Virus record (IMG/VR): IMGVR_UViG_3300037470_000624
Location: 1-59,446 of that record
DNA: 59,446 nt
Source of the DNA: a virus
Strand: one strand, 5' to 3'
Shown here: piece by piece, positions 6,656 to 59,446 of the stretch
How the letters are laid out: each line of letters begins with the position of its first letter
Position numbering within the stretch: position 1 is the stretch's first letter
Made by a program: the position numbers and the translations under genes
Notes under the pieces: generated by a model
Told to the model about the DNA's origin: nothing
Databases searched by the model: none
Seen by the model: the letters and a program-made list of their open reading frames with translations, nothing else

Positions 6656-6690
6656 CCCGGCCCACAGCCAGCGGCGACACAGCGAGCCTA
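6656..6690 (-). promoter_or_regulatory. Late-type signal L2 (TAGGCT + CCGCTGGCTGTGGGCCGGG)
   Basis: TAGGCT overlaps the queC stop codon. The 19-mer ends 28 nt before ATG 6627. Confidence 0.55.
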
Positions 6691-7377
6691 CCGCCCGACG
6701 ACCGTAGGGCTGTCTGCCTCGTACACCGTGGGGTCCAGCGCGCCAGCCTGCCGGAAGGCCTCCGCCCGGCCGGCGCACGCCGCGCAGGTACCGCAGTGCT
6801 CGGCCCCGCCGCGGTAGCAGGACCAGGTGAGGTCAAGGGGGACGCCGAGCTCCAGTCCCCGGCGCACGACCCGCGCCTTGCCCCAGTCCATGAACGGGGC
6901 CTCTACCCGGACCATCGGGGCGGCGCCTTCGTTGGCCACCCGGACCAGGCGGTCGAGCTGGGTCACGAACTCCGGCCGGCAGTCGGGGAACACGTGGTGA
7001 TCACCCGCGTGCATGCCCAGGACCACTACCTCCGCGCTCCTGGCCACCGCGACGCCGGCGGCGACGTTGGCCAGGATCGCGTTGCGGTTGGGAACGATGA
7101 CGGCCGACGCCGGCGCCGTGCCCTGCTCGGCCGGGACGCCGATGGCGCGGTCGGTGAGCGCGCTGGTGAGCAGGCCGCCGAGGGCGGAGAGGTCCGCCAC
7201 GATGTGCTCCGCGTCGTAGAACTGGGCGATCCGGGCCGCCGCGGCCAGCTCCCGCTGGTGACGCTGGCCGTAGTTGATCGACACGGCCAGGGGCCGATAC
7301 CCGTAGTAGGCGTAATGGGCGAGCGCGACGGTGGAGTCCACGCCGCCTGATAGGACGATGACAGCCGTTCCGGTCAT
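6688..7377 (-). CDS. queC: 7-cyano-7-deazaguanine synthase QueC
   Basis: VLSGGVDSTV PP-loop, NRNAIL, and a C-terminal Cys cluster SCYRGGAEHCGTCAACAGR. ATGA overlap with the upstream ORF. Confidence 0.85.
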   Translation of the reverse strand: MTGTAVIVLSGGVDSTVALAHYAYYGYRPLAVSINYGQRHQRELAAAARIAQFYDAEHIVADLSALGGLLTSALTDRAIGVPAEQGTAPASAVIVPNRNAILANVAAGVAVARSAEVVVLGMHAGDHHVFPDCRPEFVTQLDRLVRVANEGAAPMVRVEAPFMDWGKARVVRRGLELGVPLDLTWSCYRGGAEHCGTCAACAGRAEAFRQAGALDPTVYEADSPTVVGR

Positions 7378-8120
7378 GGTGTGCTTCCTTCCGGGTGGGT
7401 AGGTGCAGGGTCGAACAGTTGACCCTGGCCGGTCGTCAGGGGGACGGGGGCCGGCCGGGTGGGATGCCGGCGACGCGGAGGGCGCCATATGCCGGCGTCG
7501 TATCCCCGCACCCACGCCAGGACCTGCGACAGGTTGGCGTCCGGCCCGTAGGTGAGGTACGTGCCGTCAACGGAGTCCACGCCCAGGGCGGCGAAACGGC
7601 GGTACCGGGCCTCACTGTTGACCCGGCCGACGTGCGTGCCCTTGCCTCGGGCCTGCGCCGCGCGGATGACGTCTGCGCCGGCGGGGCCGCATTTCCAGCC
7701 CGTCGTGCCTCCGATGAACGCGACGTCGAACTCCTGCCAGGGCAGGGCCTCGACGTACTCCTCGACCCCTGCCTGCATTACCAGCGCCGCGGGGTAGCCC
7801 AGCTCCCGGATGGCGGGCAGGAACGGGAGGGACCGCTCGATCGTGGCCGCCGCGTCCGATCCGTCCTCCGCCCCGGTGAACACGTCCGGAGCTGTAGCGA
7901 ACAGGGCCCGGCCGGCGTGCGCCCTGTTGTCCTCCAGCCACCGCAGCCACTCCACGTCACCCGGGTAGCCGTCGCCGAAACACCCGTTGTCGAAACCCAG
8001 AACGGGGTAGGTGTGCTCGATGCGGTTTCCTTGGCCAGGGGTGGTCATCATGCCCAGCGCGCCGGCCTCGATGGCAGCCCGGACGGGCGCGGTACACGGA
8101 GGGGTGAGGTAGACGGTCAC
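7374..8120 (-). CDS. TGT/DpdA-like TIM-barrel transglycosylase candidate (second copy); alternative TTG start at 8165
   Basis: LGFDNGCF, FATAPDVF, FDVAFIGGTTGWK, HVGRVNS and LGVDSVDGT resemble TGT-family substrate and nucleophile Asp motifs. Translationally coupled to queC. GGAGG lies 4 nt before GTG 8120. Confidence 0.5.
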   Translation of the reverse strand: MTVYLTPPCTAPVRAAIEAGALGMMTTPGQGNRIEHTYPVLGFDNGCFGDGYPGDVEWLRWLEDNRAHAGRALFATAPDVFTGAEDGSDAAATIERSLPFLPAIRELGYPAALVMQAGVEEYVEALPWQEFDVAFIGGTTGWKCGPAGADVIRAAQARGKGTHVGRVNSEARYRRFAALGVDSVDGTYLTYGPDANLSQVLAWVRGYDAGIWRPPRRRHPTRPAPVPLTTGQGQLFDPAPTHPEGSTP

Positions 8121-23126: not shown

Positions 23127-24941
23127 CTACGACGGGGAGGAGACGTCGCACAGGATCTCAGCCGGCGAGCCGGTGACACCGGACGGGCACAGCGGGACGC
23201 GGACCGCGCGGGAGTCGTGGCCCCGCATGATGACGTTCATGCCCTCCTCGGTGAACAGGGCGTTGTACCTGTTCGTGGCCAGGTTCGGGAAGTCGTAGAT
23301 GCCGGTGTCCAGGGTGATGACGTCCAGCTCACCGACGACGAACGTGCCCGCCGCGTAGATGACGAACTCGACCTCATCCGGCCACTCCGTGATGGGGGTC
23401 GCCTCGCCCATCTCCGCGCCGCCGGTGAGCGAATCCTGATAGTCGTACACGTATTGGATGTTTACGTTCGGAATGCGCAGTTTGGCCTTGATCTGCTCAT
23501 CCGTGAGCTGGGTGAACCGCTCATCCCCGCCCCGGTTGATCAGGTCCGAGCGCATGACGCCGATGATCCACTCCGGGAGGATGACCTCCAGCGTCGCGGT
23601 CGGCTCCATGCGGTGCCGGGTGCGGTAGTCCCGCGCCTGCTGGTCCAGCGCCTCCACCAGCGCGGCGAACGCGCCCAGGGTGAGGAACCGGGCCATGACG
23701 GTGTAGTCCACGACCGTCGACGCCGCCACGATCTTCGCGATCTTGGACGCGTTGACCTTGTGCACGTGCGCCACCAGCGTGCCCCGCAGGTACCGGGCGA
23801 TGAACTCCGGGTAAGCCCGGTTCATGAGAATGCCCGCGTTGATACACACGCCGAACAGGTCGAGGCGCACCTCGTCGAAGTCCGGGCACGGGACTTCGAA
23901 ACACGTCTTCTCGACGCCCTCGATGGCCTGCGCCTCGGTCTGGGTGAAACCGACGTTCGTGTAGATCGAGGAGAACAGCGGGCCCTGGGAGAACTCCAGG
24001 CCGCCGCGCGGGAGCTGCATGGCCGGCGCCGACAGCATTCCCGCGCGGGTCTCGATCTCGAAGACGTCGTAGATCGTCTCCGACGGGGCGCACCATCCGC
24101 CCGCGGCGACCAGCGACCCCTGCGGCAGGCGCGCCTCCGACGCGGCGTACTCCAGCATGGCGATGGCGGCGGCCTTGGACGTGCCGGCGCTGGCGGTCAG
24201 CTCCTCCGGGAACGTCTTCTGGATCGTGGCCAGCCCGTACTGGACGTGACGGCTGCCGGTCCACTTGCCCGCGGGGATACCGCGGAGCTTGCGGATCAGC
24301 GCCTCCCCCACCTCGTCCATGGACACGAACGAGTGTCCGGCCGGGACGGTGCCGACGTCGGCCGCGGCGATCATGACGCCCTCCGGCAGCGGCCCGTCCC
24401 CGCGCGCCTGGGTGGGCTTGAGCGGGGTGGAGCGCAGCTTGGACAGGTCGACCGGGGTGCGTCGGGTGATGCCGGCCGCCGAGGCGGCGATCGGCGTCGG
24501 GGTGGCGTCGGTCGCGGCCGGGGCGGCGTCGGTCGCGGTCGAGCCGTCCGCGCCGGCGTCGGTGCCGGTGCCGGTGTCGCCGGTGTCGGTCGAGCCGTCC
24601 CCGGCGTCGGTGCCGGCGCCGGCGTCGGTGTCGGTGTCGGCCGTCGCGGTGCCCGTGCCCAGCCGCGCCGACATGGCGGCCAGCTTGGCCGTCTTCTCCT
24701 CCGCGGCGGCGGCCAGCGCGGTCTCCGCCTCGCCCGCCTTCTCCCCGACGGCGACAAGCTGCTCGGCCGCGTCCAGGTCAGCGTCGGTGAGCGCGGGCTG
24801 CGCCTCGATCGTGGCGAACGCCGTCGCAGCCTCGGTGCGGATCGTCGCCAGGTGCTCGGCCGAGCACTTCGCCAGCAGGGCCTGCCCGGCCTCCGCCGAC
24901 TCGGCAAACGCGTTCAGAATGTCCTGGAGCGTGGGGTTCAT
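23127..24941 (-). CDS. Major capsid protein (HK97-like) with N-terminal scaffold/delta-like coiled coil and a Thr/Asp/Gly-rich linker (604 aa)
   Basis: Position after the protease. Has late signal L4 and a terminator. Helical N-terminus of ~95 aa, a low-complexity linker, then a ~450-aa globular part. Confidence 0.75.
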   Translation of the reverse strand: MNPTLQDILNAFAESAEAGQALLAKCSAEHLATIRTEAATAFATIEAQPALTDADLDAAEQLVAVGEKAGEAETALAAAAEEKTAKLAAMSARLGTGTATADTDTDAGAGTDAGDGSTDTGDTGTGTDAGADGSTATDAAPAATDATPTPIAASAAGITRRTPVDLSKLRSTPLKPTQARGDGPLPEGVMIAAADVGTVPAGHSFVSMDEVGEALIRKLRGIPAGKWTGSRHVQYGLATIQKTFPEELTASAGTSKAAAIAMLEYAASEARLPQGSLVAAGGWCAPSETIYDVFEIETRAGMLSAPAMQLPRGGLEFSQGPLFSSIYTNVGFTQTEAQAIEGVEKTCFEVPCPDFDEVRLDLFGVCINAGILMNRAYPEFIARYLRGTLVAHVHKVNASKIAKIVAASTVVDYTVMARFLTLGAFAALVEALDQQARDYRTRHRMEPTATLEVILPEWIIGVMRSDLINRGGDERFTQLTDEQIKAKLRIPNVNIQYVYDYQDSLTGGAEMGEATPITEWPDEVEFVIYAAGTFVVGELDVITLDTGIYDFPNLATNRYNALFTEEGMNVIMRGHDSRAVRVPLCPSGVTGSPAEILCDVSSPS

Positions 24942-24971
24942 AGCGGGCGCCTTCCTGCGCGTGTCCCAGAA

Positions 24972-25009
24972 CCCGGCCCACAGCCAGCGGTCTATCCGTC
25001 GACAGCCTA
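24972..25009 (-). promoter_or_regulatory. Late-type signal L4 (TAGGCT + CCGCTGGCTGTGGGCCGGG)
   Basis: Exact 19-mer, 30 nt before ATG 24941. Lies in the divergent gap shared with the plus-strand cassette. Confidence 0.55.
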
Positions 25010-25042
25010 GCGCGTCGTCCGCCGGACTCCACGAGGATCACC

Positions 25043-25720
25043 GTGCAGAGTGTGCCCATGGGAACCACGGAGCATGAATTCCTCGGCGGGCTGGCAGGTA
25101 AGACAGTTGCGCTCGTCGGGTCGGCGGCCTCCGCGACCGGCACCGGTCTCGGCTACCAGATCGAGGCGCACGACGTCGTGTGCCGGGTGAACTGGTCCTG
25201 TCCGGTACCGCGGCGAATGGAACGCGACATCGGGACGCGGACCGACGTGCTGTATCACATCCTGACGCCGACCGGTCGGCTCCGAGCAGGGGTGCCAGCG
25301 TGGCGGAGGGCCCGCGTCGGCATGGTGGTGTCCGTCCACGCCTCCGACCGGCCCCGGGTGCGCCGTTACAAGCTGCTCGCCGGGGCCGGGGGGCCGCCGC
25401 TGCTGGTGCTGGAGAACCACCGACGCGAGATGTACGACCGGCTCGGCACCAAGGCCAACACCGGCGTGCTCGCGCTCGCGCACCTGCTCCAGTCCGGTTT
25501 GGAGCGTCTGACGGTGTACGGATTCGACATGTTCGCCACCGGTCACTGGCTCGGGCAGCTCGGCGAGTCCCCCACCGCGGCCGCGCGGCAGGCCGGCATC
25601 GTGACCGGCCACGACCAGCCGATCCAACGCGCCTACCTCGCCGGTCTGCTGCGCGACGAGCCCCGCCTGTTCGTGACCCGCGAGTTCCGCGCCTCGATCG
25701 AGCGAGAGGCCCGGGTGTGA
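25043..25720 (+). CDS. Sialyltransferase-fold (GT29/GT42-like) glycosyltransferase paralog 1
   Basis: GKTVALVGSAAS..GYQIEAHDVVCRVNW..DIGTRTDVLYH (motif L-like). ANTGVLALAHLL..LTVYGFD (motif S-like). GAGGA SD before the GTG. Confidence 0.65.
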   Translation: MQSVPMGTTEHEFLGGLAGKTVALVGSAASATGTGLGYQIEAHDVVCRVNWSCPVPRRMERDIGTRTDVLYHILTPTGRLRAGVPAWRRARVGMVVSVHASDRPRVRRYKLLAGAGGPPLLVLENHRREMYDRLGTKANTGVLALAHLLQSGLERLTVYGFDMFATGHWLGQLGESPTAAARQAGIVTGHDQPIQRAYLAGLLRDEPRLFVTREFRASIEREARV

Positions 25721-26400
25721 GGGACCAGGGTTGGCTGCGGTCTCTCAAGGGCAAGCGGGTAGCGCTGGTGGGCGCCGCGGCGTCCGGGGTGGGTACCAAG
25801 CTCGGCGCCCAGATAGACGCCCACGACGTCGTTGTCCGGGTGAACTGGGCCTGCCCTGTGCCGGCGCCGCTGCGGGCCCACCTCGGCAGGCGGACCGACA
25901 CGCTGTACCACGTGATGCGGTACGGCAAGGCCGAGACGGTGGGCCGGAAGACGTTCCGGGCGTGGAAAGGGGCAGGGGTGAGCCTGCTGGTGTGCATGGC
26001 GTCGATGTCCAAGCCCCGAGCGCGGATCGCGAAGACCCTCGCCGCGGAGTTCCGGATCCCGTTCCTGTGCGTCGCGCCGCTGCGGTCCCAGGTGTCCAGG
26101 GCGACCGGGACCGGCGCCAACACCGGTATCTGCGCGCTGGCGCACATGATGCGGTCCGACCTGGCCCAGTTGAGCGTGTACGCGTTCGACTTCTACGAGA
26201 CCGGTCATTGGTTGGGGCAGGCCAATGAGACGCCGGCGCAGGCCGCCGCGCAGGCCGGTATCGACCTGGGCCACGGCCAGATGCAACAACGCGTCTGGGT
26301 GCGGGACCTCGCCCGGTCCGACCCTCGCCTCGTACTGCTGCCTGAGATTCGGGACATGCTGGAGCAGAACAGGAGCCGGTGGTGGATGTCGTCTACGTAG
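25717..26400 (+). CDS. Sialyltransferase-fold (GT29/GT42-like) glycosyltransferase paralog 2
   Basis: GKRVALVGAAAS..GAQIDAHDVVVRVNW..GRRTDTLYH. ANTGICALAHMM..LSVYAFD. GTGA overlap with paralog 1. Confidence 0.65.
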   Translation: MRDQGWLRSLKGKRVALVGAAASGVGTKLGAQIDAHDVVVRVNWACPVPAPLRAHLGRRTDTLYHVMRYGKAETVGRKTFRAWKGAGVSLLVCMASMSKPRARIAKTLAAEFRIPFLCVAPLRSQVSRATGTGANTGICALAHMMRSDLAQLSVYAFDFYETGHWLGQANETPAQAAAQAGIDLGHGQMQQRVWVRDLARSDPRLVLLPEIRDMLEQNRSRWWMSST

Positions 26401-27137
26401 TGCGCCCAGGGGATGTGAATGAGGAGCTGCGGTACAGCCTGCGCAGCCTGGTGAACCTGCCCCACGATCAGGTGTGGATCGTCGGCTACCGGCCGCAGTG
26501 GGTGCGCGGGGTGCAGCACATCCCGCTGCGGCAGCTCGGGCCGAAGTGGACGAACAGCACGGCGAACCTGCGCCGCGCCTGCGCGCACCCGGGTGTGTCC
26601 GAGCGGTTCGCCTACTTCAATGACGACTTTTTCCTGCTCCAGCCCCTCGGCGACGACCTGCCCATGTGGAACCGGGGCCCCCTCGGCGACGTGCTCGCCC
26701 GGTACGCGAAGTCGAACTCCCGGTATGCCGACGGGATGCGGAAGACCGCGAAGCTGCTGCGTGACCTGGGCCTGCCCGGGCCGTACCTGTCCTACGAGCT
26801 CCACGCGCCGATGCCTGTGCAGAAACTCGGGATGCTCGAAGCGTTGGCGGCGGCGGAGGCCCGGCCGGTCCAGGGCGTGCTGCACAAGCGGACCCTGTAC
26901 GGGAACTACTGGGGGTTGGGCGGGCTGTCGATGCCGGACGGGAAGCTGCACGGCCTGCGTGACCGGTACCCGGCCGGGGCGTTGTGGACCTCCACGACCG
27001 ACGGCCTGTTCCGCCGCGGCCTGGTGGGGCGTCAGTTGCGCGCTGCGTTCCCCGAGCCGTCGCCGTACGAGCTGACCCTCGGCAGTCCCGGAACGGCCCG
27101 CACGCGCGCGCACAGCCTGGTGCGCCGCGGTAGGTAG
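26379..27137 (+). CDS. Stealth-like (hexose-1-phosphate transferase family) protein
   Basis: VDVVYVVRPGD (CR1-like), FAYFNDDFFLLQP (CR2-like), YELHAPMP (CR3-like). AGGAG SD. 22-nt overlap with paralog 2. Confidence 0.55.
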   Translation: MVDVVYVVRPGDVNEELRYSLRSLVNLPHDQVWIVGYRPQWVRGVQHIPLRQLGPKWTNSTANLRRACAHPGVSERFAYFNDDFFLLQPLGDDLPMWNRGPLGDVLARYAKSNSRYADGMRKTAKLLRDLGLPGPYLSYELHAPMPVQKLGMLEALAAAEARPVQGVLHKRTLYGNYWGLGGLSMPDGKLHGLRDRYPAGALWTSTTDGLFRRGLVGRQLRAAFPEPSPYELTLGSPGTARTRAHSLVRRGR

Positions 27138-27152
27138 CCCGGACGTGACAGT

Positions 27153-27176
27153 GCCCCCGCCCGTCGGGGCGGGGGC
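27153..27176. terminator. Bidirectional hairpin between convergent genes
   Basis: gcccccgccc / gtcg / gggcgggggc (10 bp) between stop 27137 (+) and stop 27192 (-). Confidence 0.7.
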
Positions 27177-27191
27177 GCTGCGGCCGGGTGG

Positions 27192-28106
27192 TCAGTCGTG
27201 TGCGGTGTACGGGTGGCCGATGATCGGGCCCGGGCCGGTGGGCACGTCGGCGTTGTGCGGGTACTTGCAGTCGTCGCGGACGGTGTGGACGCGCGACCCG
27301 TGGTCGAGGTTTTCGCACCGCACCGGGTTGGGCAGCATGGCCGCCAGCTCCTCGTTGGCCCGGTTGCGCGCGATGCGTCGGACGGCGGGGGCGTTGCGGC
27401 GGTGCTCGGGGAACTTCCACACCGCGGCGAGGTAGGCCTTGTCCCAGATTGCCGCCTCCAGCGCGCTGGGGTCGACGGGGGTCTGCTCGGCCGCCTGCTT
27501 CTCGGCCGCGGTATGGGCCAGGTCCAGGCGCGTGGTGTCGCCCATGATGTTGAGCCGCGACGTGATGTCGCGGGCGGTGAGCTTGCGTTGGGTCCGGGCT
27601 GAGTAGCTGCGCATGAACATGCCGGACAGGCGACCTCCGCGGGAGTTGTCGCCGATCGTGAGCCACACCATGAGGATGTCGCCGAACTTGTCGGTGAACG
27701 TGGCGCTGTGGATGGTGTAGGTGCTCACGGCCTTGAACGTTTCGGCGTCGTGGACCTCGACCTTGACGCCGTTGTCGCGGGCCCGGTCGACGAGGCGCTG
27801 GAGCTTGGCGGGGGTGGCGGGGGCGGCGGGGGCCTGCTGGGTGGGGGTCTCGGTCATCGTGCGCTCCGGGGTGTCAGCCGGGGCGTCAGCGGCGGGGGCG
27901 GTGCGCGCCCAGAGCTTCGCCGAAGGGGTGAAGATCGCGACCTGGTTGCCGGTGGTGGCCGCGAAGAGGCGGACTGCCTGCCCGCTGTACTCGGCGCGGA
28001 CCTGCATGCCCGTGTCGGAGGGGCGGGTGCCGCGTCCGAAGAATGTGAAGGTGTCCGGGCGTCCGTGCCCCTTGAATGTTGCGTTGGTGGGTGTGGTCTC
28101 GGTCAT
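27192..28106 (-). CDS. Hypothetical protein (304 aa), insulated unit with early-type promoter
   Basis: ATG 28104-28106 after GAGGAG. Promoter E2 upstream and terminator downstream. Confidence 0.65.
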   Translation of the reverse strand: MTETTPTNATFKGHGRPDTFTFFGRGTRPSDTGMQVRAEYSGQAVRLFAATTGNQVAIFTPSAKLWARTAPAADAPADTPERTMTETPTQQAPAAPATPAKLQRLVDRARDNGVKVEVHDAETFKAVSTYTIHSATFTDKFGDILMVWLTIGDNSRGGRLSGMFMRSYSARTQRKLTARDITSRLNIMGDTTRLDLAHTAAEKQAAEQTPVDPSALEAAIWDKAYLAAVWKFPEHRRNAPAVRRIARNRANEELAAMLPNPVRCENLDHGSRVHTVRDDCKYPHNADVPTGPGPIIGHPYTAHD

Positions 28107-28142
28107 CGCGGGCTCCTCGGTGTGTCGCTTCCTGACACACAG

Positions 28143-28186
28143 ACAGTACCTCACCCCGACCCACGCTGTACAGGTTTCCGACACAG
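28143..28186 (-). promoter_or_regulatory. Early-type promoter E2 (-35 TGTACA, 18 nt, -10 TACTGT) with leader inverted repeat GTGTGTC-N7-GACACAC (28120..28140)
   Basis: The ~85-bp block 28107..28190 is nearly identical to 28476..28563. Confidence 0.5.
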
Positions 28187-28210
28187 TGACTTCCGCGGGA
28201 GACACCACGA

Positions 28211-28475: not shown

Positions 28476-28515
28476 CGGGGGCTCCTCCGTCGGTGTGTCG
28501 TTTCCTGACACACCG

Positions 28516-28559
28516 ACCGTACCTCACCCCGACCCGCGCTGTACAGGTTTCCGACACAG
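28516..28559 (-). promoter_or_regulatory. Early-type promoter E3 (-35 TGTACA, 18 nt, -10 TACGGT) with leader inverted repeat GGTGTGTC-N7-GACACACC (28492..28514)
   Basis: Direct-repeat copy of the E2 block. Confidence 0.5.
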
Positions 28560-28579
28560 TGATCGCGTGGGCATGGAAC

Positions 28580-42277: not shown

Positions 42278-42886
42278 TTAGGCCAGCGCCATGAACTCCC
42301 CACGCGTCGCCGCGTCCGACCGGAACTTGCCCACCAGATGCGACGACACCATCTCCGCCCCCTCCGCCCGAGCCCCCCGCAACGTCATGCACGTGTGAGC
42401 GCTCGTGATGACACACCCCGCGGCCACAACGTCCATGTGATCGTCGATGGCCTCCACCACCTGCTGGCCCAGACGCTCCTGCACCTGCGGCCGGGCCGCG
42501 TACCCCCGGACCAGACGGGCCAGCTTCGACAGCCCCACAATCGGCGCGTCCACCGCGGGGATGTACCCCACCGTGGCCCGGCCCGTGAACGCCAGCACGT
42601 GATGCTCACACACAGCCGTGAACGGGACCCGTCGGACGACGATCAGGCCCGGGTCGCGCGTCTCCGGAGGGAACTGCACGTTCAGGTGGACCGCAGGGTC
42701 GGCGTGCAGCCCCTCCGTCAGCTCCGCCAGCGCGCGGACCATACGCCGCGGCGTCGCCACCAGATGCCCCACCGACGTATCGATGCCCAGCGCCTCCAGC
42801 ATGGTTTGCGCGGCCAGCTCGGCCGCGTCGAGGTCCACACCCGCCGCCCGGCCGTTGAGCCCGGCCCGTGACTGCACCGTCGTCAT
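42278..42886 (-). CDS. folE: GTP cyclohydrolase I (FolE)
   Basis: TPRRMVRAL, FTAVCEHHVL, VGYIP, SKLARLV and TSAHTCMTLRG motifs. Confidence 0.85.
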   Translation of the reverse strand: MTTVQSRAGLNGRAAGVDLDAAELAAQTMLEALGIDTSVGHLVATPRRMVRALAELTEGLHADPAVHLNVQFPPETRDPGLIVVRRVPFTAVCEHHVLAFTGRATVGYIPAVDAPIVGLSKLARLVRGYAARPQVQERLGQQVVEAIDDHMDVVAAGCVITSAHTCMTLRGARAEGAEMVSSHLVGKFRSDAATRGEFMALA

Positions 42887-43632
42887 TACCGCCCCTTGTC
42901 CTCATCCGGCCACAGGAACACGTGCATGCGCTGCGTGAGGTTCCACCCCCGCGCCAACACCGGATCCGCCAGCGCAGAGCCGCGGGCCATCAACACCTCC
43001 GGGGTGACGCCCTCCGGCATGATCCACACGTGGTGGGCCCGGATACCCGCCGCGGTGACGACGCCCTGCACGTGGTCGAGGTCGTCGTCGTCGCGGACTA
43101 CGAACTTGAACACCGCGCGGCCTGTCTCCGCCAGCTCCCGCAGCACGTGCCGCCGGATGCGGTCCGCCGGCGTGCCGCCCGCGTGCGCCAGCTTCGGCGA
43201 GACGTTCCACCGCGTGACCGTGTTGAGCGATGGGACCGTCGGCAGCACGGTGCCGTTCGTCTCCACCTCCACGTCGCCCAGGTCCGCAAGCCCCTGGACC
43301 AGCGGCGTCCACCCCGGGGTGCGCTGGTGCAGCAGCGGCTCCCCGCCCGTGACCACCGTCAGCGGCGCGCGGGACTCCGCCACCCTGGCGAGCACCGAGT
43401 TGACCGGCACCCGCGTCAGCTCTTTGCGCAGGTCGAACCGGGACGCGTCCCACGTGTACGGGGTGTCGCACCACGTGCATGACAGGTTGCACCCGCCGAG
43501 GCGGACGAACATCGCCTGGCGGCCCGTCGACGGTCCCTCACCTTGGAACGTCGGGCCGAACACTTCCGCGACGACCACCGACATGCCCGCGCCGGGCCCT
43601 TTGACGAACCCCGGCTCCAGTACGTCCGTCAC
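42886..43632 (-). CDS. queE: 7-carboxy-7-deazaguanine synthase QueE (radical SAM)
   Basis: FQGEGPSTGRQAMFVRLGGCNLSCTWCDTPYTW and TGGEPLL. GTGA overlap with queD. Confidence 0.85.
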   Translation of the reverse strand: MTDVLEPGFVKGPGAGMSVVVAEVFGPTFQGEGPSTGRQAMFVRLGGCNLSCTWCDTPYTWDASRFDLRKELTRVPVNSVLARVAESRAPLTVVTGGEPLLHQRTPGWTPLVQGLADLGDVEVETNGTVLPTVPSLNTVTRWNVSPKLAHAGGTPADRIRRHVLRELAETGRAVFKFVVRDDDDLDHVQGVVTAAGIRAHHVWIMPEGVTPEVLMARGSALADPVLARGWNLTQRMHVFLWPDEDKGR

Positions 43633-44114
43633 CGGTCCGCCTCCCAGATCGCCGTGTTGACGCGAGTTTCCCGGACCGACACCCGGGTGACCGTAGCGCC
43701 GTGCTCCGACAGCAGGCCCGTGTACAGCAGGCGTGCGGCCACGCGGGACAGCAGCGTCGCCACGTTCTCCACCGTCGGCCACGCCAGACCCGCGGCGAGG
43801 GAACCGCCAGGCCACTCCACGGGGCCGGCCGCGAACAGGTACAGCTTGCAGCCGGCCTCCTGTAGGGGCGTGACCAGCTCGTCGTCCGCGCCGAGCATCG
43901 TGCCGTGGTCGAGGTTCGTGTCGATCCAGTCCCGCAGCAGCGCCTTGTACGCGCCGAACTCCACCACCGTGCCCTGCGGCGACAGCTTCGGCGTCGACAC
44001 CGTGACCTTGGTCCACCACGAGTGGCCGTGCAAGCTGGCGCACTTACCGCCGAGGTGGGGGAGGCGGTGCGCGGTCTCGAAGTTGTGCGCCACCCGAACT
44101 GAGTACCTGGTCAC
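43629..44114 (-). CDS. queD: 6-carboxy-5,6,7,8-tetrahydropterin synthase QueD
   Basis: FETAHRLPHLGGKCASLHGHSW, LDHGTML, PTVENVA and VSVRETRVNTA. Confidence 0.85.
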   Translation of the reverse strand: MTRYSVRVAHNFETAHRLPHLGGKCASLHGHSWWTKVTVSTPKLSPQGTVVEFGAYKALLRDWIDTNLDHGTMLGADDELVTPLQEAGCKLYLFAAGPVEWPGGSLAAGLAWPTVENVATLLSRVAARLLYTGLLSEHGATVTRVSVRETRVNTAIWEADR

Positions 44115-45465: not shown

Positions 45466-45707
45466 GAGCTGCCCCGCGCGGCCGCGGCCGCGTCACGGCG
45501 CCACTTGTACAGGTTGAGGCAGTACACCCAGAGGTACGCCGCCGCCGCGGCGTAGAACCCCCACTGAGCCGTGACCGTCGCGTACGCGAACCAAAGGACC
45601 TGGGCCGCGGCGCCGACAGCCCAGCCCCACCACGAGCCGCGGCCGGCCAGCCACAGCCCGAGCACGCCCACGCCGGCGAGCAGCCAGGACCACCACCAGG
45701 CGCTCAC
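45462..45707 (-). CDS. Trp-rich 3-TM membrane protein (81 aa), PnuC-half-like
   Basis: WLAGRGSWWGWAVGAAAQVLWFAY..GFYAAAAAYLWVYCLNLYKWRR. GTGA overlaps on both sides. Confidence 0.45.
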   Translation of the reverse strand: MSAWWWSWLLAGVGVLGLWLAGRGSWWGWAVGAAAQVLWFAYATVTAQWGFYAAAAAYLWVYCLNLYKWRRDAAAAARGSS

Positions 45708-46645
45708 CTGCCCCCCTTACACACCGGGGTCTCCCCGGTGATCCTCGCCCACTTCGTGATCAGCCACCCGGCCAGGTACAGGTTCGGCTGCACCATGACG
45801 ACCGGATGGTCCTGGGCCTCCTCTGCGAACGGGGCCAGCGGCGTCGGGTAGGGCCAGAACAGGGTGTCCGGGGTGGCCAGCAGCGGCACCCACTGCGGCC
45901 AGCCCTCGTGGACGTCGCCGCACACCAGGCGGTGCCGGCCCAGGAACCAAACCTGGCCGGGCTCCGGCATGTAGTCCGGCTCTCCGACGGTGACCCCGGC
46001 CAGCGCCAACAGCTCGCCCTTCGGCACCGGGTCGTTGCCGTCCGGGTCCGCCTCCGCCGAGCCGAGGTCGCCCGCGGCGGCCAGTTCCTCTTGGAGGCCG
46101 GCGAGGTCGGTGTCGTCGAAACCGGCCGCTGACATGAGGTCCGGGTCGTCGGCCAGGTCCTCCAGCATGTCCACGAGCTGCCCAGTGTCCCACCCGCCGC
46201 GTTCGGTGTACCGGTTGAGCGCGACCAGCAGGCCCTCCGCCTCTTTGTCCGACCGCGACGCCCAGCCGCGTTGGACGGGGGTGAGCCACTGCCCGCCGTC
46301 GGTGGTGGCAAGTACACCGTCCGGCGGGTCCTCGCCCGCGTCGCGCATGCCCTGCAGGGCCTCCCGCCGTCCGTGGCCACCGATAAGGCGGCCCGTGCGC
46401 TCGTCGAGGATGACCGCGTCCGCCATGCCGAACCGTTCGATCGCGCGGCGGATGCCGTCGAGGTCGTGCCCCTTCGGGTTGCGGGGCGCCGCGGGCAGGT
46501 CGTCAACGTCCATGTACTCGGTCCACCGCGGCGGGCGGCCCACGACCGGGCTGTCCGGTTCGTCCCCGGCCTCGAGTTGTGGGGCGGCCGGATCCGGCTC
46601 GGTGAACGTCGCCCGCGGCGCCGACAGCTTCGGCTTGGCCGTCAC
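45704..46645 (-). CDS. ParB/Srx-domain protein fused to a truncated, degenerate DNA-methyltransferase-like segment
   Basis: NPKGHDLDGIRRAIERFG..ILDERTGRLIGGHGRREAL (ParB N-domain). GRHRLVCGD, then WPYPTP where a DPPY-type motif would be expected. Confidence 0.65.
   Translation of the reverse strand: MTAKPKLSAPRATFTEPDPAAPQLEAGDEPDSPVVGRPPRWTEYMDVDDLPAAPRNPKGHDLDGIRRAIERFGMADAVILDERTGRLIGGHGRREALQGMRDAGEDPPDGVLATTDGGQWLTPVQRGWASRSDKEAEGLLVALNRYTERGGWDTGQLVDMLEDLADDPDLMSAAGFDDTDLAGLQEELAAAGDLGSAEADPDGNDPVPKGELLALAGVTVGEPDYMPEPGQVWFLGRHRLVCGDVHEGWPQWVPLLATPDTLFWPYPTPLAPFAEEAQDHPVVMVQPNLYLAGWLITKWARITGETPVCKGGR
46551..46577 (-). repeat. Dispersed 27-mer, exact copy (inside the ParB-like gene)
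   Basis: ctgtccggttcgtccccggcctcgagt is identical to 19310..19336. Confidence 0.9.
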
Positions 46646-59042: not shown

Positions 59043-59446
59043 TCAGGTCTTCCGCTCGTGGTGCAGTCGCTCCAGCGCCTCCGACGCCATGAGGGCTTCG
59101 ACAAGAACGCCACAGGTGCCGCACCGCTCGTGAGGCTGTGCACCTTCCGGCATGTGCTCCTGCGCCAGCAGCAGCACGGCCTGCTCCACCCGGCCCAGGG
59201 TGAAGGCGGCCCGGTCGAGCAGGTCACGGCCACGCAGCGCCGCGACGGCGGCCTCCAGCCGCTCGGGGGAGAGGTCGAGCGCGGTGCCGGTGGCCCACAC
59301 GTTCGCGGCCCGCTCCGGAGCGGGACGGCCGGGGTAGCCGGCCATCGGGCCCGGGTCCACCAGGAACGTGCAGGAGGCGGTGCGGTTGTCCACCTCGTAC
59401 CCGATGGCGCTGGCGACCGTGGCAATGTCGCCGCGCTGCTCGATGG
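59043..59446 (-). CDS. 3' part of the edge-spanning gene (see 1..302)
   Basis: The ORF stays open upstream of the GTG at 59393 as far as the window end. It joins 1..302 through the 127-bp overlap. Confidence 0.7.
   Translation of the reverse strand, partial: IEQRGDIATVASAIGYEVDNRTASCTFLVDPGPMAGYPGRPAPERAANVWATGTALDLSPERLEAAVAALRGRDLLDRAAFTLGRVEQAVLLLAQEHMPEGAQPHERCGTCGVLVEALMASEALERLHHERKT
59320..59446. repeat. Terminal direct repeat, copy 2 (identical to 1..127)
   Basis: See copy 1. Confidence 0.95.

Follow-up and report, generated by a model that had tools for sequence, protein, structure and literature searches.

An antisense cassette of GT29-like and Stealth-like enzyme genes beside the major capsid gene: a candidate virion glycosylation operon in a complete phage genome

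The window analysed here, by which we mean the whole 59,446-nt stretch of contig IMGVR_UViG_3300037470_000624, carries a 127-bp exact direct repeat at both ends and hence represents a complete phage genome. This genome has a GC content of 71%, is of actinobacterial type and is otherwise encoded on the minus strand. Its major capsid gene (23127-24941, minus strand) codes for a hexamer-type protein of 604 aa, identified by PHROG 777 (E=9e-145) and by tblastn matches to genes for a 'major capsid hexamer protein'. Three overlapping plus-strand genes, antisense to the rest, lie between this gene and a convergent hairpin: ORF1 (25043-25720, 225 aa), ORF2 (25717-26400, 227 aa) and ORF3 (26379-27137, 252 aa, PHROG 7999). 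The three frames were found where the initial annotation had placed them, with ORF2 read from an internal GTG at 25717; the JGI call for ORF1 uses an alternative start, ATG 25058, and yields 220 aa. Both overlaps described earlier were also recovered. The GTG of ORF2 (25717-25719) sits on the TGA of ORF1 (25718-25720), and ORF2 is translationally coupled to ORF1 through this GTGA overlap (25717-25720). Similarly, the GTG of ORF3 (26379) precedes the TAG of ORF2 (26398-26400), giving an overlap of 22 nt. Purine-rich, Shine-Dalgarno-like stretches are present 5' of the three starts (GAGGA at 25033-25037, GAGAGG at 25704-25709 and AGGAG at 26371-26375).

The codon-position composition of ORF1, ORF2 and ORF3 is that of real genes of the same genome, with GC3 values of 0.88, 0.90 and 0.92, respectively, and GC1 above GC2. 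Comparison with a 97%-identical sister phage (L003) gave pN/pS values of 0.14 for ORF1 and 0.05 for ORF2. The cassette genes are under purifying selection, and these two frames are therefore not chance ORFs. The cassette had been described as holding the only plus-strand genes of the genome, and this stands at the level of a GC-position filter rather than of an exhaustive gene call: the remaining plus-strand ORFs that pass the filter are antisense shadows (GC1 below GC2) or Arg-rich off-frame translations.

The cassette is bounded by two intergenic regions. The divergent gap of 101 bp (24942-25042) runs from the capsid gene start to the ORF1 start, holds the GAGGA stretch and is 100% identical in the sister phage, as compared with about 97% in coding DNA. 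A promoter scan of this gap found no sigma-70-like promoter matching the consensus; presumably the gap holds the cassette promoter. On the other side, the 54-nt convergent region (27138-27191) contains the hairpin noted previously, whose core, at 27153-27176, consists of a stem of ten uninterrupted G+C pairs closed by a GTCG loop. The region folds at -45.7 kcal/mol (z = -4.9), none of 200 shuffles folding equally well, and differs in the sister phage by a single base outside the core stem. The scan for canonical terminators found no U-tract at 27153-27176, and for this reason missed the hairpin, which likely acts as a bidirectional, factor-independent or I-shaped terminator.

ORF1 and ORF2 are paralogs with 46% identity (BLASTP E=4e-62). 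The motifs listed in the initial annotation as common to both are present and conserved, and the sialyltransferase (GT29) family call drawn from them is upheld by Pfam, profile and Foldseek comparisons. ORF1 matches PF00777 with 26.4 bits, above the gathering score of 23, and ORF2 alone stays just under it (21.1 bits); across the family, 43 of 44 members match at E<0.01, the best at 2.2e-12. The profile of this mini-GT29 family matches pig ST3Gal-I with E=7e-10, and motifs L, S and VS are aligned. The AlphaFold model of ORF1 has a pLDDT of 81.6 and a pTM of 0.84, with a low-confidence segment at residues 160-190 (pLDDT about 58-60). In the proposed Foldseek comparison with GT29 and GT42 structures, this model returned GT29 enzymes at all of PDB ranks 1 to 29, and GT42 CstII at rank 32. 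The GT29 matches (E 1.5e-6 to 2.6e-4, TM 0.49-0.58) were led by ST6GALNAC2, ST3Gal-I, ST8SiaIII and ST6Gal1. As modelled, the fold of ORF1 is of the GT-A variant 2 sialyltransferase type. DUF115/MptE-like phage proteins were among its weaker structural neighbours.

The residues expected of a sialyltransferase active site are largely retained. In motif L, ORF1 V22-A-L-V-G-S-A-A-S30 ... I40-E-A-H-D-V-V-C-R-V-N50 aligns with CAVVGNSG...IDSHDFVLRMN of ST3Gal-I, and R48 and N50 are invariant across 44 family sequences. In motif S, ORF1 A138-N-T-G141 aligns with P-S271-T272-G, the Ser being replaced by Asn, so that N139-T140-G141 are aligned with the CMP-binding S271-T272-G273; V-Y159-G-F161 aligns with L-Y-G-F, and G141 and G160 are each kept in at least 90% of the 44 members. 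H190, at least 90% conserved in these divergent members, aligns in the profile alignment with ST3Gal-I His319 (chain residue 274), which we take to be the catalytic His of motif VS. H190 is thus its putative counterpart, in a part of the model with a local pLDDT of about 58-60. Conservation of motif III, (H/Y)-Y-(Y/F/W)-(E/D), is not clear. At its expected place, the phage clade has T-G-H168-W-L-G-Q and the wider family has T-G-Y-x-x-G-Y, with Tyr instead of H168, but neither aligns residue for residue with H302-Y-W-E.

The likeness to GT29 sialyltransferases such as pig ST3Gal-I (2WNB) and human ST6GALNAC2 (6APL) therefore comprises the GT-A variant 2 fold (TM about 0.5-0.58), motif L, the T-G of motif S and the motif VS His. 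On the other hand, eukaryotic catalytic domains span about 270-300 aa and the phage proteins about 220 aa, identity is 14-19%, and the phage versions are tandemly duplicated and phage-borne. No hydrophobic segment was found in ORF1, ORF2 or ORF3 (maximum KD19 of 1.25-1.27 for ORF1 and ORF2), and no Cys is among the invariant residues of the ORF1/ORF2 family, so that the conserved L-S disulfide of eukaryotic members has no counterpart. Uncharacterised bacterial GT29-like proteins likewise have neither a transmembrane anchor nor conserved disulfide cysteines (Petit et al., 2018; PMC5811610); hence, type II membrane topology and the L-S disulfide are features of the eukaryotic subgroup, not of the superfamily. 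The ORF2 protein also occurs in three other contigs (cluster P0130), and tblastn with ORF1 found no match in 50,697 deposited phage records. Altogether, ORF1 and ORF2 are well supported as compact (about 220 aa), soluble GT29-superfamily paralogs.

ORF3 had been proposed to resemble the Stealth family (Sperisen 2005; features as given in PMC10668966) of hexose-1-phosphate transferases. The meningococcal capsule polymerases CsaB and CsxA are also members. The ORF3 family profile matches the GlcNAc-1-phosphotransferase GNPTAB (1.6e-8) and M. tuberculosis CpsY (4.9e-8). The ORF3 model has a pLDDT of 91.2, the C-terminal 17 residues being disordered, and the proposed fold comparison with Stealth enzymes placed CpsY or GNPTAB at all of Foldseek ranks 1 to 12 (E 6.9e-11 to 1.2e-7), followed by generic retaining GT-A enzymes, e.g. 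UGGT and GT6. Conserved region CR1 corresponds to residues 2-8, V-D-V-V-Y-V-V (Stealth family IDVVYTF), in which V5 is the same in all of 24 homologs and D3 and V8 in at least 90% of them. The CR2 model (PF11380) is matched by 24 of 24 family members, the best at 1.9e-9, with ORF3 itself at 25 bits against a cut-off of 39.4. Within CR2, a region of about 100 aa in Stealth proteins, E75 and N81-D82-D83 align with ...SEHFLYSNDD of CpsY and ...SQKFIYLNDD of GNPTAB, and D82 and D83 are invariant among the homologs. In CpsY, E305 binds the sugar (GlcNAc), and N322 and D324 form the metal site (PMC10668966); these correspond to ORF3 E75, N81 and D83. The FAYFNDDFF stretch, taken earlier for a separate conserved region, is in fact the end of CR2. 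As a putative CR3 element, Y139-E-L-H142-A-P144 contains an H-x-P that aligns with HMPH of GNPTAB; an invariant R171 is also present, unmatched to the strictly conserved, phosphate-binding Arg (CpsY R419).

Thus, the Stealth assignment stands on profile and fold matches, CR1 and CR2, but the CR4 sequence CLND/CIND is absent from ORF3, which has W-T-S205-T206 instead (family consensus F-L-S-T), and the Pfam models for CR1, CR3 and CR4 gave no score on it. The CR4 model matched weakly (E about 0.1) in 3 of the 24 homologs. Unlike CpsY (8J2N) and GNPTAB (7S6N), with which it shares the core fold, ORF3 has about 250 aa and no spacer segments or extra domains. Because CLND is missing and only CR2 scored, below its cut-off, we file ORF3 as Stealth-like rather than canonical; it is well supported as a divergent, minimal Stealth-like enzyme with a GT-A fold. 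PHROG 7999 is labelled 'unknown function', and the ORF3-type gene, present in 53 of 50,697 deposited phage genomes, is unannotated among the matches listed. We know of no phage member of the Stealth family described so far. For the cassette as a whole, we hold the enzyme-family assignment with high confidence.

The donor sugars can be approached through an actinobacterial relative. In the genome of a Pontimonas (Actinomycetota), a four-gene CMP-Kdo-type operon, coding for a KdsB-type cytidylyltransferase, a KdsD-type SIS+CBS protein, a KdsA-type DAHP_synth_1 protein and a HAD phosphatase, is immediately followed by a tandem pair of mini-GT29 genes. This arrangement suggests CMP-ulosonic-acid donors and points to Kdo-type rather than Neu5Ac donors for the mini-GT29 enzymes. 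GT29 and GT107 domains are reported to transfer ulosonic acids from CMP-activated donors (PMC13171606). As judged from this genomic context, CMP-ulosonic acids are somewhat favoured as the donor class of ORF1 and ORF2. None of the roughly 40 window ORFs scanned was recognised as a sugar-nucleotide biosynthesis gene; therefore, the donor would depend on the host, and host-supplied donors are plausible for the cassette. Streptomyces walls hold a Kdn-based teichulosonic acid and a poly(diglycosyl-1-phosphate) (PMC11481543).

The pairing of GT29-like and Stealth-like genes had been considered undescribed, which appears to be the case; it is also recurrent. In the proposed survey of co-occurrence, a GT29-like gene directly followed by a Stealth-like gene was found in three phage lineages, twice between the prohead protease and capsid genes. 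The sister phage carries the same antisense cassette at the same position. Two phages with an unrelated head module (L001 and L017) have protease, GT29-like, Stealth-like and major capsid protein genes on one strand. In L002, a GT29-like gene lies between the gene for the capsid and that for a gp10-like connector, with GT1, FkbM-methyltransferase and NTP-transferase genes around it, and in L025 and L026 a Stealth-like gene is located between the capsid and tail-terminator genes. In Streptomyces phage TurkishDelight, a Stealth-like gene is flanked by the genes for the major tail protein and an adaptor, with a gene for a 678-aa glycosyltransferase nearby. Stealth-like genes, which are common in actinophages and prophages, are also found in other settings: those of Gordonia phage OneUp and of mycobacteriophage Gaia lie among early/DNA-metabolism genes, that of L007 has lysin, WhiB and RecE genes as neighbours, and those of cluster K phages are upstream of the terminase genes at the left genome end.

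Glycosylation functions had been regarded as unexpected in an actinophage structural module. This view does not hold, given how common the Stealth-like gene is in actinophages and given the virion glycosylation known for Che8, Corndog and Myrna. As summarised in later papers, phage glycosyltransferases modify capsid and tail-tube proteins of these phages (Freeman et al. 2023, Cell Host Microbe 31:1216, via PMC12363180, PMC11256854), the enzymes named being Che8 gp110 and Corndog gp38 (PMC12363180). By these summaries, the known systems and our cassette have in common phage-encoded glycosyltransferase genes in actinobacteriophages, sometimes in or beside the structural genes; enzymes of the known systems act in the cytoplasm on subunits of the capsid and tail tube, as those of the cassette may do. 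Methyltransferase and GT1 genes as in Che8-type systems are also carried by L002 and L027. The cassette enzymes, in contrast, are of GT29-like and Stealth-like classes, and Che8 and Corndog are both absent from the 40 matches listed of the 53 found for ORF3. What the cassette would share with Che8-type systems, as read from the genes, is the mechanism and not the enzyme family. Maf/FlmG-type flagellin glycosyltransferases, which are soluble and cytoplasmic, transfer CMP-activated nonulosonic acids directly onto Ser/Thr of a self-assembling structural protein (for FlmG, bioRxiv 10.1101/2022.03.25.485807). They offer a functional analogy and a mechanistic precedent only; the likeness rests on function, not on sequence.

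What the enzymes would do in the infected cell, including their donors, order of action, acceptor and biological role, we infer as follows. The cassette would be a functional, separately transcribed and translationally coupled operon for three glycosylation enzymes. ORF1 and ORF2 would act as soluble, minimal GT29-type inverting transferases. Each would attach an ulosonic acid (Kdo, Kdn or another nonulosonic acid), drawn in its CMP-activated form from the host, and the two would differ in linkage or in the position used. For ORF3, a UDP-hexose or UDP-HexNAc is the most likely donor, from which it would transfer either a plain sugar or, like canonical Stealth enzymes, a sugar-1-phosphate. Working together in the cytoplasm late in infection, the three enzymes would assemble a short acidic glycan on proteins of the virion, with the adjacent major capsid protein as the prime candidate acceptor and the tail tube as the second. 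The particle would thereby gain a glycan coat like that of Che8-type mycobacteriophages, but made by other enzyme classes and with other sugars.

This reading is supported by the linkage to head genes in several phages (L003, L001, L017, L002, L025/L026 and TurkishDelight) and by the capsid protein itself. Codons about 104-165 of the capsid gene (nt 24447-24632) encode an unusually Thr/Asp/Gly-rich linker, with an S+T fraction of 0.28 as compared with 0.08-0.15 in three homologs from phages without GT29 genes. The protein, encoded by the immediate divergent neighbour of the cassette, is a candidate substrate. Several observations count against it. Maturation may cleave off a scaffold-like N-terminal domain at the place of the linker. 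In Che8, glycosylation takes place at the capsid C-terminus, and here this end is not obviously extended as compared with homologs. The cassette runs antisense to the late operon between a gap and a hairpin of its own, a moron-like arrangement that also fits early or lysogenic expression, and the Stealth-like gene also occurs in the non-structural contexts of OneUp, Gaia, L007 and cluster K. The lack of sugar-nucleotide biosynthesis genes among the ORFs scanned counts here too, as do the low-confidence segment of the ORF1 model and the fact that neither GT29 motif III nor the Stealth CR3 Arg and CLND could be traced in the enzymes. Virion proteins as the acceptor are about an even prospect, and since this is the weakest layer, the overall reading as a virion (capsid) glycosylation operon is held no more firmly.

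The enzymes might act instead on host wall glycopolymers or lipid-linked precursors, for example by capping or altering Kdn-teichulosonic acid and sugar-1-phosphate polymers. By masking the phage receptor, such remodelling of the envelope could bring about superinfection exclusion or stop progeny phages from binding to debris. Each of the two Streptomyces wall polymers has its match in one of the enzyme chemistries (PMC11481543), and characterised Stealth enzymes (CpsY, GNPTAB) act on glycans, not on bare protein (PMC10668966). Such a role would suit a cassette that forms a separate antisense unit set off by a gap and a hairpin, and it would suit the location of Stealth-like genes in OneUp, Gaia and L007 (early or non-structural regions) and in cluster K genomes (left end). 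However, in L001 and L017 the GT29-like/Stealth-like pair runs co-directionally between the protease gene and the capsid gene, and a Stealth-like gene is placed between capsid and tail genes (L025, L026) or among tail genes (TurkishDelight); these positions argue for co-expression with virion proteins. In addition, the three proteins have no membrane anchor. Lysogenic conversion finds no support, as no integrase or repressor was found among the scanned ORFs, a scan that was not exhaustive. We consider action on the host envelope unlikely, although it is the best of the alternatives to virion glycosylation.

It is less probable still that the same folds serve another chemistry or acceptor. ORF3 would then be an ordinary retaining GT-A hexosyltransferase, ORF1 and ORF2 would use a non-ulosonic or non-CMP donor, and the product would be a small molecule, a scaffold or another phage protein. 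The loss of the near-universal CLND, a Pfam score for CR2 only and below cut-off, and the retaining GT-A enzymes (UGGT, GT6) that follow the Stealth structures in the fold search are all compatible with this possibility; so are the poorly conserved motif III, with its His-to-Tyr change in the wider family, and the fact that no bacterial mini-GT29 has been characterised (PMC5811610). Yet motif L, which binds the nucleotide, is conserved together with T-G in motif S and His in motif VS, the Pontimonas operon links the mini-GT29 family to CMP-Kdo synthesis, and CR1 and the E/N-D-D Stealth active-site residues are invariant in the ORF3 family. Finally, that the ORFs are nonfunctional, either decaying remnants or chance frames of a 71% GC genome, in which many long spurious ORFs arise on both strands, is effectively refuted by their codon-position GC and pN/pS values, by specific family, profile and fold matches, and by the gene order kept among homologs in other phages.

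Returning to virion glycosylation, the glycan itself might resemble the host wall. A capsid coat of acidic glycans, in which GT29-added Kdn/Kdo-type ulosonic acid and a Stealth-added, phosphodiester-linked sugar copy teichulosonic acid and poly(diglycosyl-phosphate), is a possible though tentative extension of the proposed pathway. To our knowledge, neither ulosonic acid nor sugar phosphate has been reported on phage particles. If this reading is true, the phage would provide the first 'sialylated' or phosphoglycosylated bacteriophage particle, and its cassette the first biochemical function for the prokaryotic mini-GT29 clade that is thought to be ancestral to the eukaryotic sialyltransferases.

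The three plus-strand ORFs proposed in the initial annotation are present in the sequence at 25043-25720 (ORF1), 25717-26400 (ORF2) and 26379-27137 (ORF3), and both overlaps described between them, GTGA at 25717-25720 and 22 nt at 26379-26400, are real. Each start is preceded by a purine-rich stretch resembling a ribosome-binding site. The codon-position GC of the cassette is gene-like (GC3 0.88-0.92, GC1 above GC2), and comparison with a sister phage carrying the same cassette (a 36,189-bp contig, L003/L004, with proteins 97-99% identical) gave pN/pS values of 0.14 for ORF1 and 0.05 for ORF2. These properties rule out chance ORFs. The assertion that the cassette holds the only plus-strand genes also stands, as no further plus-strand ORF convincingly passed an ORF-level filter on GC1, GC2 and GC3; the two remaining candidates have Arg-rich, off-frame translations. 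Past ORF3, the anticipated hairpin was recovered in the 54-nt convergent gap, which folds at -45.7 kcal/mol (z = -4.9) and contains no U-tract. At the other border, the sister phage shows no difference across the 101-bp divergent gap that precedes ORF1. Our scan of 24700-27400 for canonical promoters and terminators found none, including no promoter in this gap, which had been read as a late-promoter gap.

ORF1 and ORF2, which share 46% identity, had been likened to GT29 sialyltransferases, and this reading was upheld by Pfam, profile and structure searches. ORF1 scored 26.4 against the Pfam GT29 model, over the gathering score of 23, and ORF2 fell just under it at 21.1. In a single-sequence search of PDB chains, pig ST3Gal-I was matched at E=0.002 with sialyltransferase motifs L and S aligned, and a profile of 44 divergent relatives, 43 of which match PF00777, improved this to E=7e-10. 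In the profile alignment, a near-invariant His of the family (H190 of ORF1) falls on ST3Gal-I chain residue 274, the catalytic His319. Similarly, N-T-G at ORF1 139-141 aligned to the CMP-binding S271-T272-G of ST3Gal-I. The AlphaFold model of ORF1 (pLDDT 81.6) retrieved GT29 structures at all ranks from 1 to 29 among its PDB neighbours. Membership of GT42 was rejected, since the sialyltransferase CstII, which typifies that family, was only the 32nd structural match (E=2e-3), ranking far below the GT29 enzymes. GT29 motif III had no clear match in either protein, and segment 160-190 of the ORF1 model is of low confidence. Neither protein has conserved cysteines and both are soluble, in line with the bacterial GT29-like sequences described previously (Petit et al., PMC5811610). 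Neither matched any PHROG, and NCBIfam searches of ORF1, ORF2 and ORF3 returned no match.

The assignment of ORF3 to the Stealth family held only in part. In Pfam, the sole detection in ORF3 was Stealth conserved region CR2, under the cut-off; this region was detected in all 24 homologs. A profile of these 24 sequences matched GlcNAc-1-phosphotransferase at 1.6e-8 and M. tuberculosis CpsY at 4.9e-8. The 12 best structural neighbours of the ORF3 model (pLDDT 91.2) are all Stealth proteins, with generic retaining GT-A enzymes next in rank. CR1 (VDVVYVV) and the Glu and N-D-D of CR2 are present and conserved, but in comparison with the family definition (PMC10668966) the CLND tetrapeptide of CR4 is absent, and the Arg position of CR3 could not be mapped onto ORF3. 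We therefore regard ORF3 as a minimal, divergent Stealth-like enzyme, for which sugar-1-phosphate transfer is the predicted chemistry and our leading hypothesis.

An exact 127-bp terminal direct repeat (1-127 and 59320-59446) indicates that the contig is a complete genome of ~59.3 kb, circularly closed or terminally redundant. Its GC content is about 71%, and no integrase gene was found among the ~40 window ORFs scanned. The structural module lies on the minus strand and comprises, in this order, genes for terminase, portal, a MuF-protease fusion, the major capsid "hexamer" protein (23127-24941), a minus-strand PHROG 779 protein just downstream of the capsid gene (277 aa, assigned by PHROG match, function label unknown) and the major tail protein. 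In the capsid protein, a low-complexity linker rich in Thr, Asp and Gly connects the N-terminal scaffold-like part to the HK97-fold part (codons ~104-165; 24447-24632, minus strand). Linker length is unequal in the window and the sister phage through repeat indels, such as an extra PAATDAT; in capsid homologs of phages without GT29 genes the linkers are Ala/Pro/Glu-rich. Maturation may remove this segment. A 338-aa ORF that matched nothing in Pfam or PHROGs (27192-28208, minus strand) stands between the hairpin of the cassette and the head genes; as annotated, its N-terminus probably takes in an upstream repeat element, and the sister phage version was called at 214 aa. A 73-nt direct repeat, also present in the sister phage, occurs at 28117-28189 and 28490-28562, in two copies that are 95% identical and the only ones in the genome. 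In the interval from the MuF-protease gene to the cassette, each copy immediately precedes, in minus-strand orientation, one of two successive small or unknown genes, and the true starts of these genes are likely ~28106 and ~28511. The repeat may represent a repeated promoter, 5'UTR or start-associated element. Elsewhere in the genome, a GTP cyclohydrolase I gene (PF01227, E=1.6e-51; 42278-42886, minus strand) adjoins one for a QueE-like radical-SAM/4Fe-4S protein (42886-44043, minus strand), and a QueC-like protein (PHROG 1550, E=9e-68) is encoded apart (6688-7515, minus strand). Judged by these matches, the three genes resemble a phage pathway for DNA modification with 7-deazaguanine (preQ0 or archaeosine-type). 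The non-structural arm also encodes a ParB-like or DNA-methyltransferase-like protein (PHROGs 498 and 620; 45704-46645, minus strand).

Members of the close GT29-like family are very scarce: a word-seeded search of 5.8 billion proteins gave 9 clusters, and IMG/VR contains one close relative. Among 50,697 phage records, neither tblastn with ORF1 nor megablast with the cassette gave a match, and a contig scan of 185,579 species genomes for the family patterns found no relative. The wider mini-GT29 family has 2,235 representatives at E≤1e-3 (742 at E≤1e-10), among them proteins of Paracoccus and Rhizobiales, some from Actinomycetota, and multidomain proteins; BFVD includes a few GT29-annotated proteins from uncultured Caudovirales and giant viruses. 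The ORF3 family is abundant (1,121 relatives at E≤1e-5, mainly in Streptomyces-type genomes and phage-like contigs) and corresponds to PHROG 7999, labelled "unknown function". Genes of this type occur in 53 deposited actinophages of Mycobacterium (34), Microbacterium (10), Gordonia (7) and Streptomyces (2), always annotated as hypothetical.

A GT29-like gene directly followed by a Stealth-like gene was seen in three lineages. In the window and its sister phage, the antisense cassette lies between the capsid gene and the 338/214-aa gene. In a second lineage (contigs L001 and L017), the order on a single strand is S78 protease, GT29-like, Stealth-like and major capsid protein, within an HK97-type head module unrelated to that of the window. 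In the third, a 54% GC actinophage fragment (L007), the neighbourhood of the pair includes lysin, WhiB and RecE-like genes. Another locus (L002) has a GT29-like gene among GT1, FkbM-type methyltransferase and NTP-transferase-like genes, flanked by capsid and gp10-like connector genes; profile comparison revealed no significant hidden Stealth-like gene there, and the NTP-transferase-like gene and two neighbours gave nothing significant in a PDB sequence search. Stealth-like genes also occur alone between capsid and tail-terminator genes (L025/L026), or, accompanied by GT1 and methyltransferase genes, downstream of a window-type capsid (L027). In Streptomyces phage TurkishDelight (L019, NC_073473.1, genes 20-22), the Stealth-like gp22 is flanked by the genes for the major tail protein and an adaptor, and comes two genes after one for a 678-aa glycosyltransferase. 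In cluster K mycobacteriophages the gene is upstream of the terminase genes, and in OneUp and Gaia it is in non-structural regions. Thus, head and tail genes are frequent neighbours, but not universal ones. Both TurkishDelight gp22 and cluster K gp6 (L020, mycobacteriophage Fionnbharth), deposited as hypothetical proteins, are Stealth-like members of PHROG 7999.

Regarding sugar donors, no sugar-nucleotide biosynthesis genes were found among the ~40 window ORFs scanned, so donors must be supplied by the host. A first hint for the mini-GT29 enzymes is suggested by gene order in a Pontimonas sp. MAG (Actinomycetota; L035 4363-9673, CBFHWA010000004.1). Here, four genes with domains of CMP-Kdo-pathway type encode a cytidylyltransferase (KdsB-type), an SIS+CBS isomerase (KdsD-type), a DAHP_synth_1 protein (KdsA- or Kdo-8-P-synthase-type) and an HAD phosphatase; directly after them come two mini-GT29 genes in tandem and then a polysaccharide pyruvyltransferase gene. 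This operon is likely a locus for a Kdo-containing cell-wall glycopolymer in a Gram-positive actinobacterium. GT29 domains have been treated as CMP-ulosonic-acid transferases in a study of E. coli capsules (PMC13171606). Moreover, Kdn-based teichulosonic acid and poly(diglycosyl-1-phosphate) occur in streptomycete walls (PMC11481543), which makes CMP-ulosonic acid and UDP-HexNAc/Hex donors both plausible in such hosts.

What these enzymes modify can be weighed from gene context and precedent. Glycosylation of phage particles was shown only recently, in a few mycobacteriophages, and protects the particles against antibodies. In Che8, Corndog and Myrna, glycosyltransferases encoded by the phage act on proteins of the capsid and tail tube (Freeman 2023, via PMC12363180, PMC11256854). 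This precedent, the repeated adjacency to capsid genes and the soluble, cytoplasmic nature of the enzymes favour glycosylation of the virion, specifically of the capsid, to which we give an even chance of being the role of the cassette. A putative target would be the capsid linker, whose S+T fraction is 0.28 versus 0.08-0.15 in three homologs. A Che8-like C-terminal Ser/Thr extension was sought on the capsid and major tail proteins, and nothing convincing emerged in comparison with homologs. Remodelling of host wall glycopolymers is the main rival, and we consider it unlikely, if worth keeping in view: the cassette is an independent antisense transcription unit, the predicted chemistries are wall-like and some homologs lie in non-structural contexts, all of which would suit it; the capsid-gene adjacency and the Che8-type precedent favour the virion instead. 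That the folds are right and the donor or acceptor chemistry is other than proposed seems improbable.

Glycosylation cassettes are already known in actinophages as a kind. Our literature search on Stealth-like or GT29 virion modification by phages found nothing relevant, and in the literature searched there appears to be no account of the duplicated mini-GT29 and minimal Stealth-like classes, of how they recur as a pair or of the acidic or phosphodiester glycans that they imply. If confirmed, virion glycosylation by this cassette would bring other classes of enzyme into particle glycosylation, along with negatively charged sugars that are sialic-acid-like or phosphodiester-linked. Such sugars have quite different surface and immune properties, and antibody shielding bears on phage therapy. 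Prokaryotic GT29-like proteins are the proposed origin of eukaryotic sialyltransferases and, to our knowledge, are still uncharacterised; the soluble, disulfide-free representatives of 220 aa make appealing subjects for enzymology, structure determination and glyco-engineering. At 230-250 aa, the Stealth-like core is the most compact form of an enzyme family important in bacterial capsules and human lysosomal targeting. TurkishDelight and the cluster K phages are in culture and are candidates for direct tests of virion glycosylation. Confirmation would also provide a testable function for PHROG 7999, a family that lacks annotation in no fewer than 53 cultured actinophages, cluster K mycobacteriophages among them, and that has over 1,100 relatives in the DNA of actinobacterial phages and prophages.
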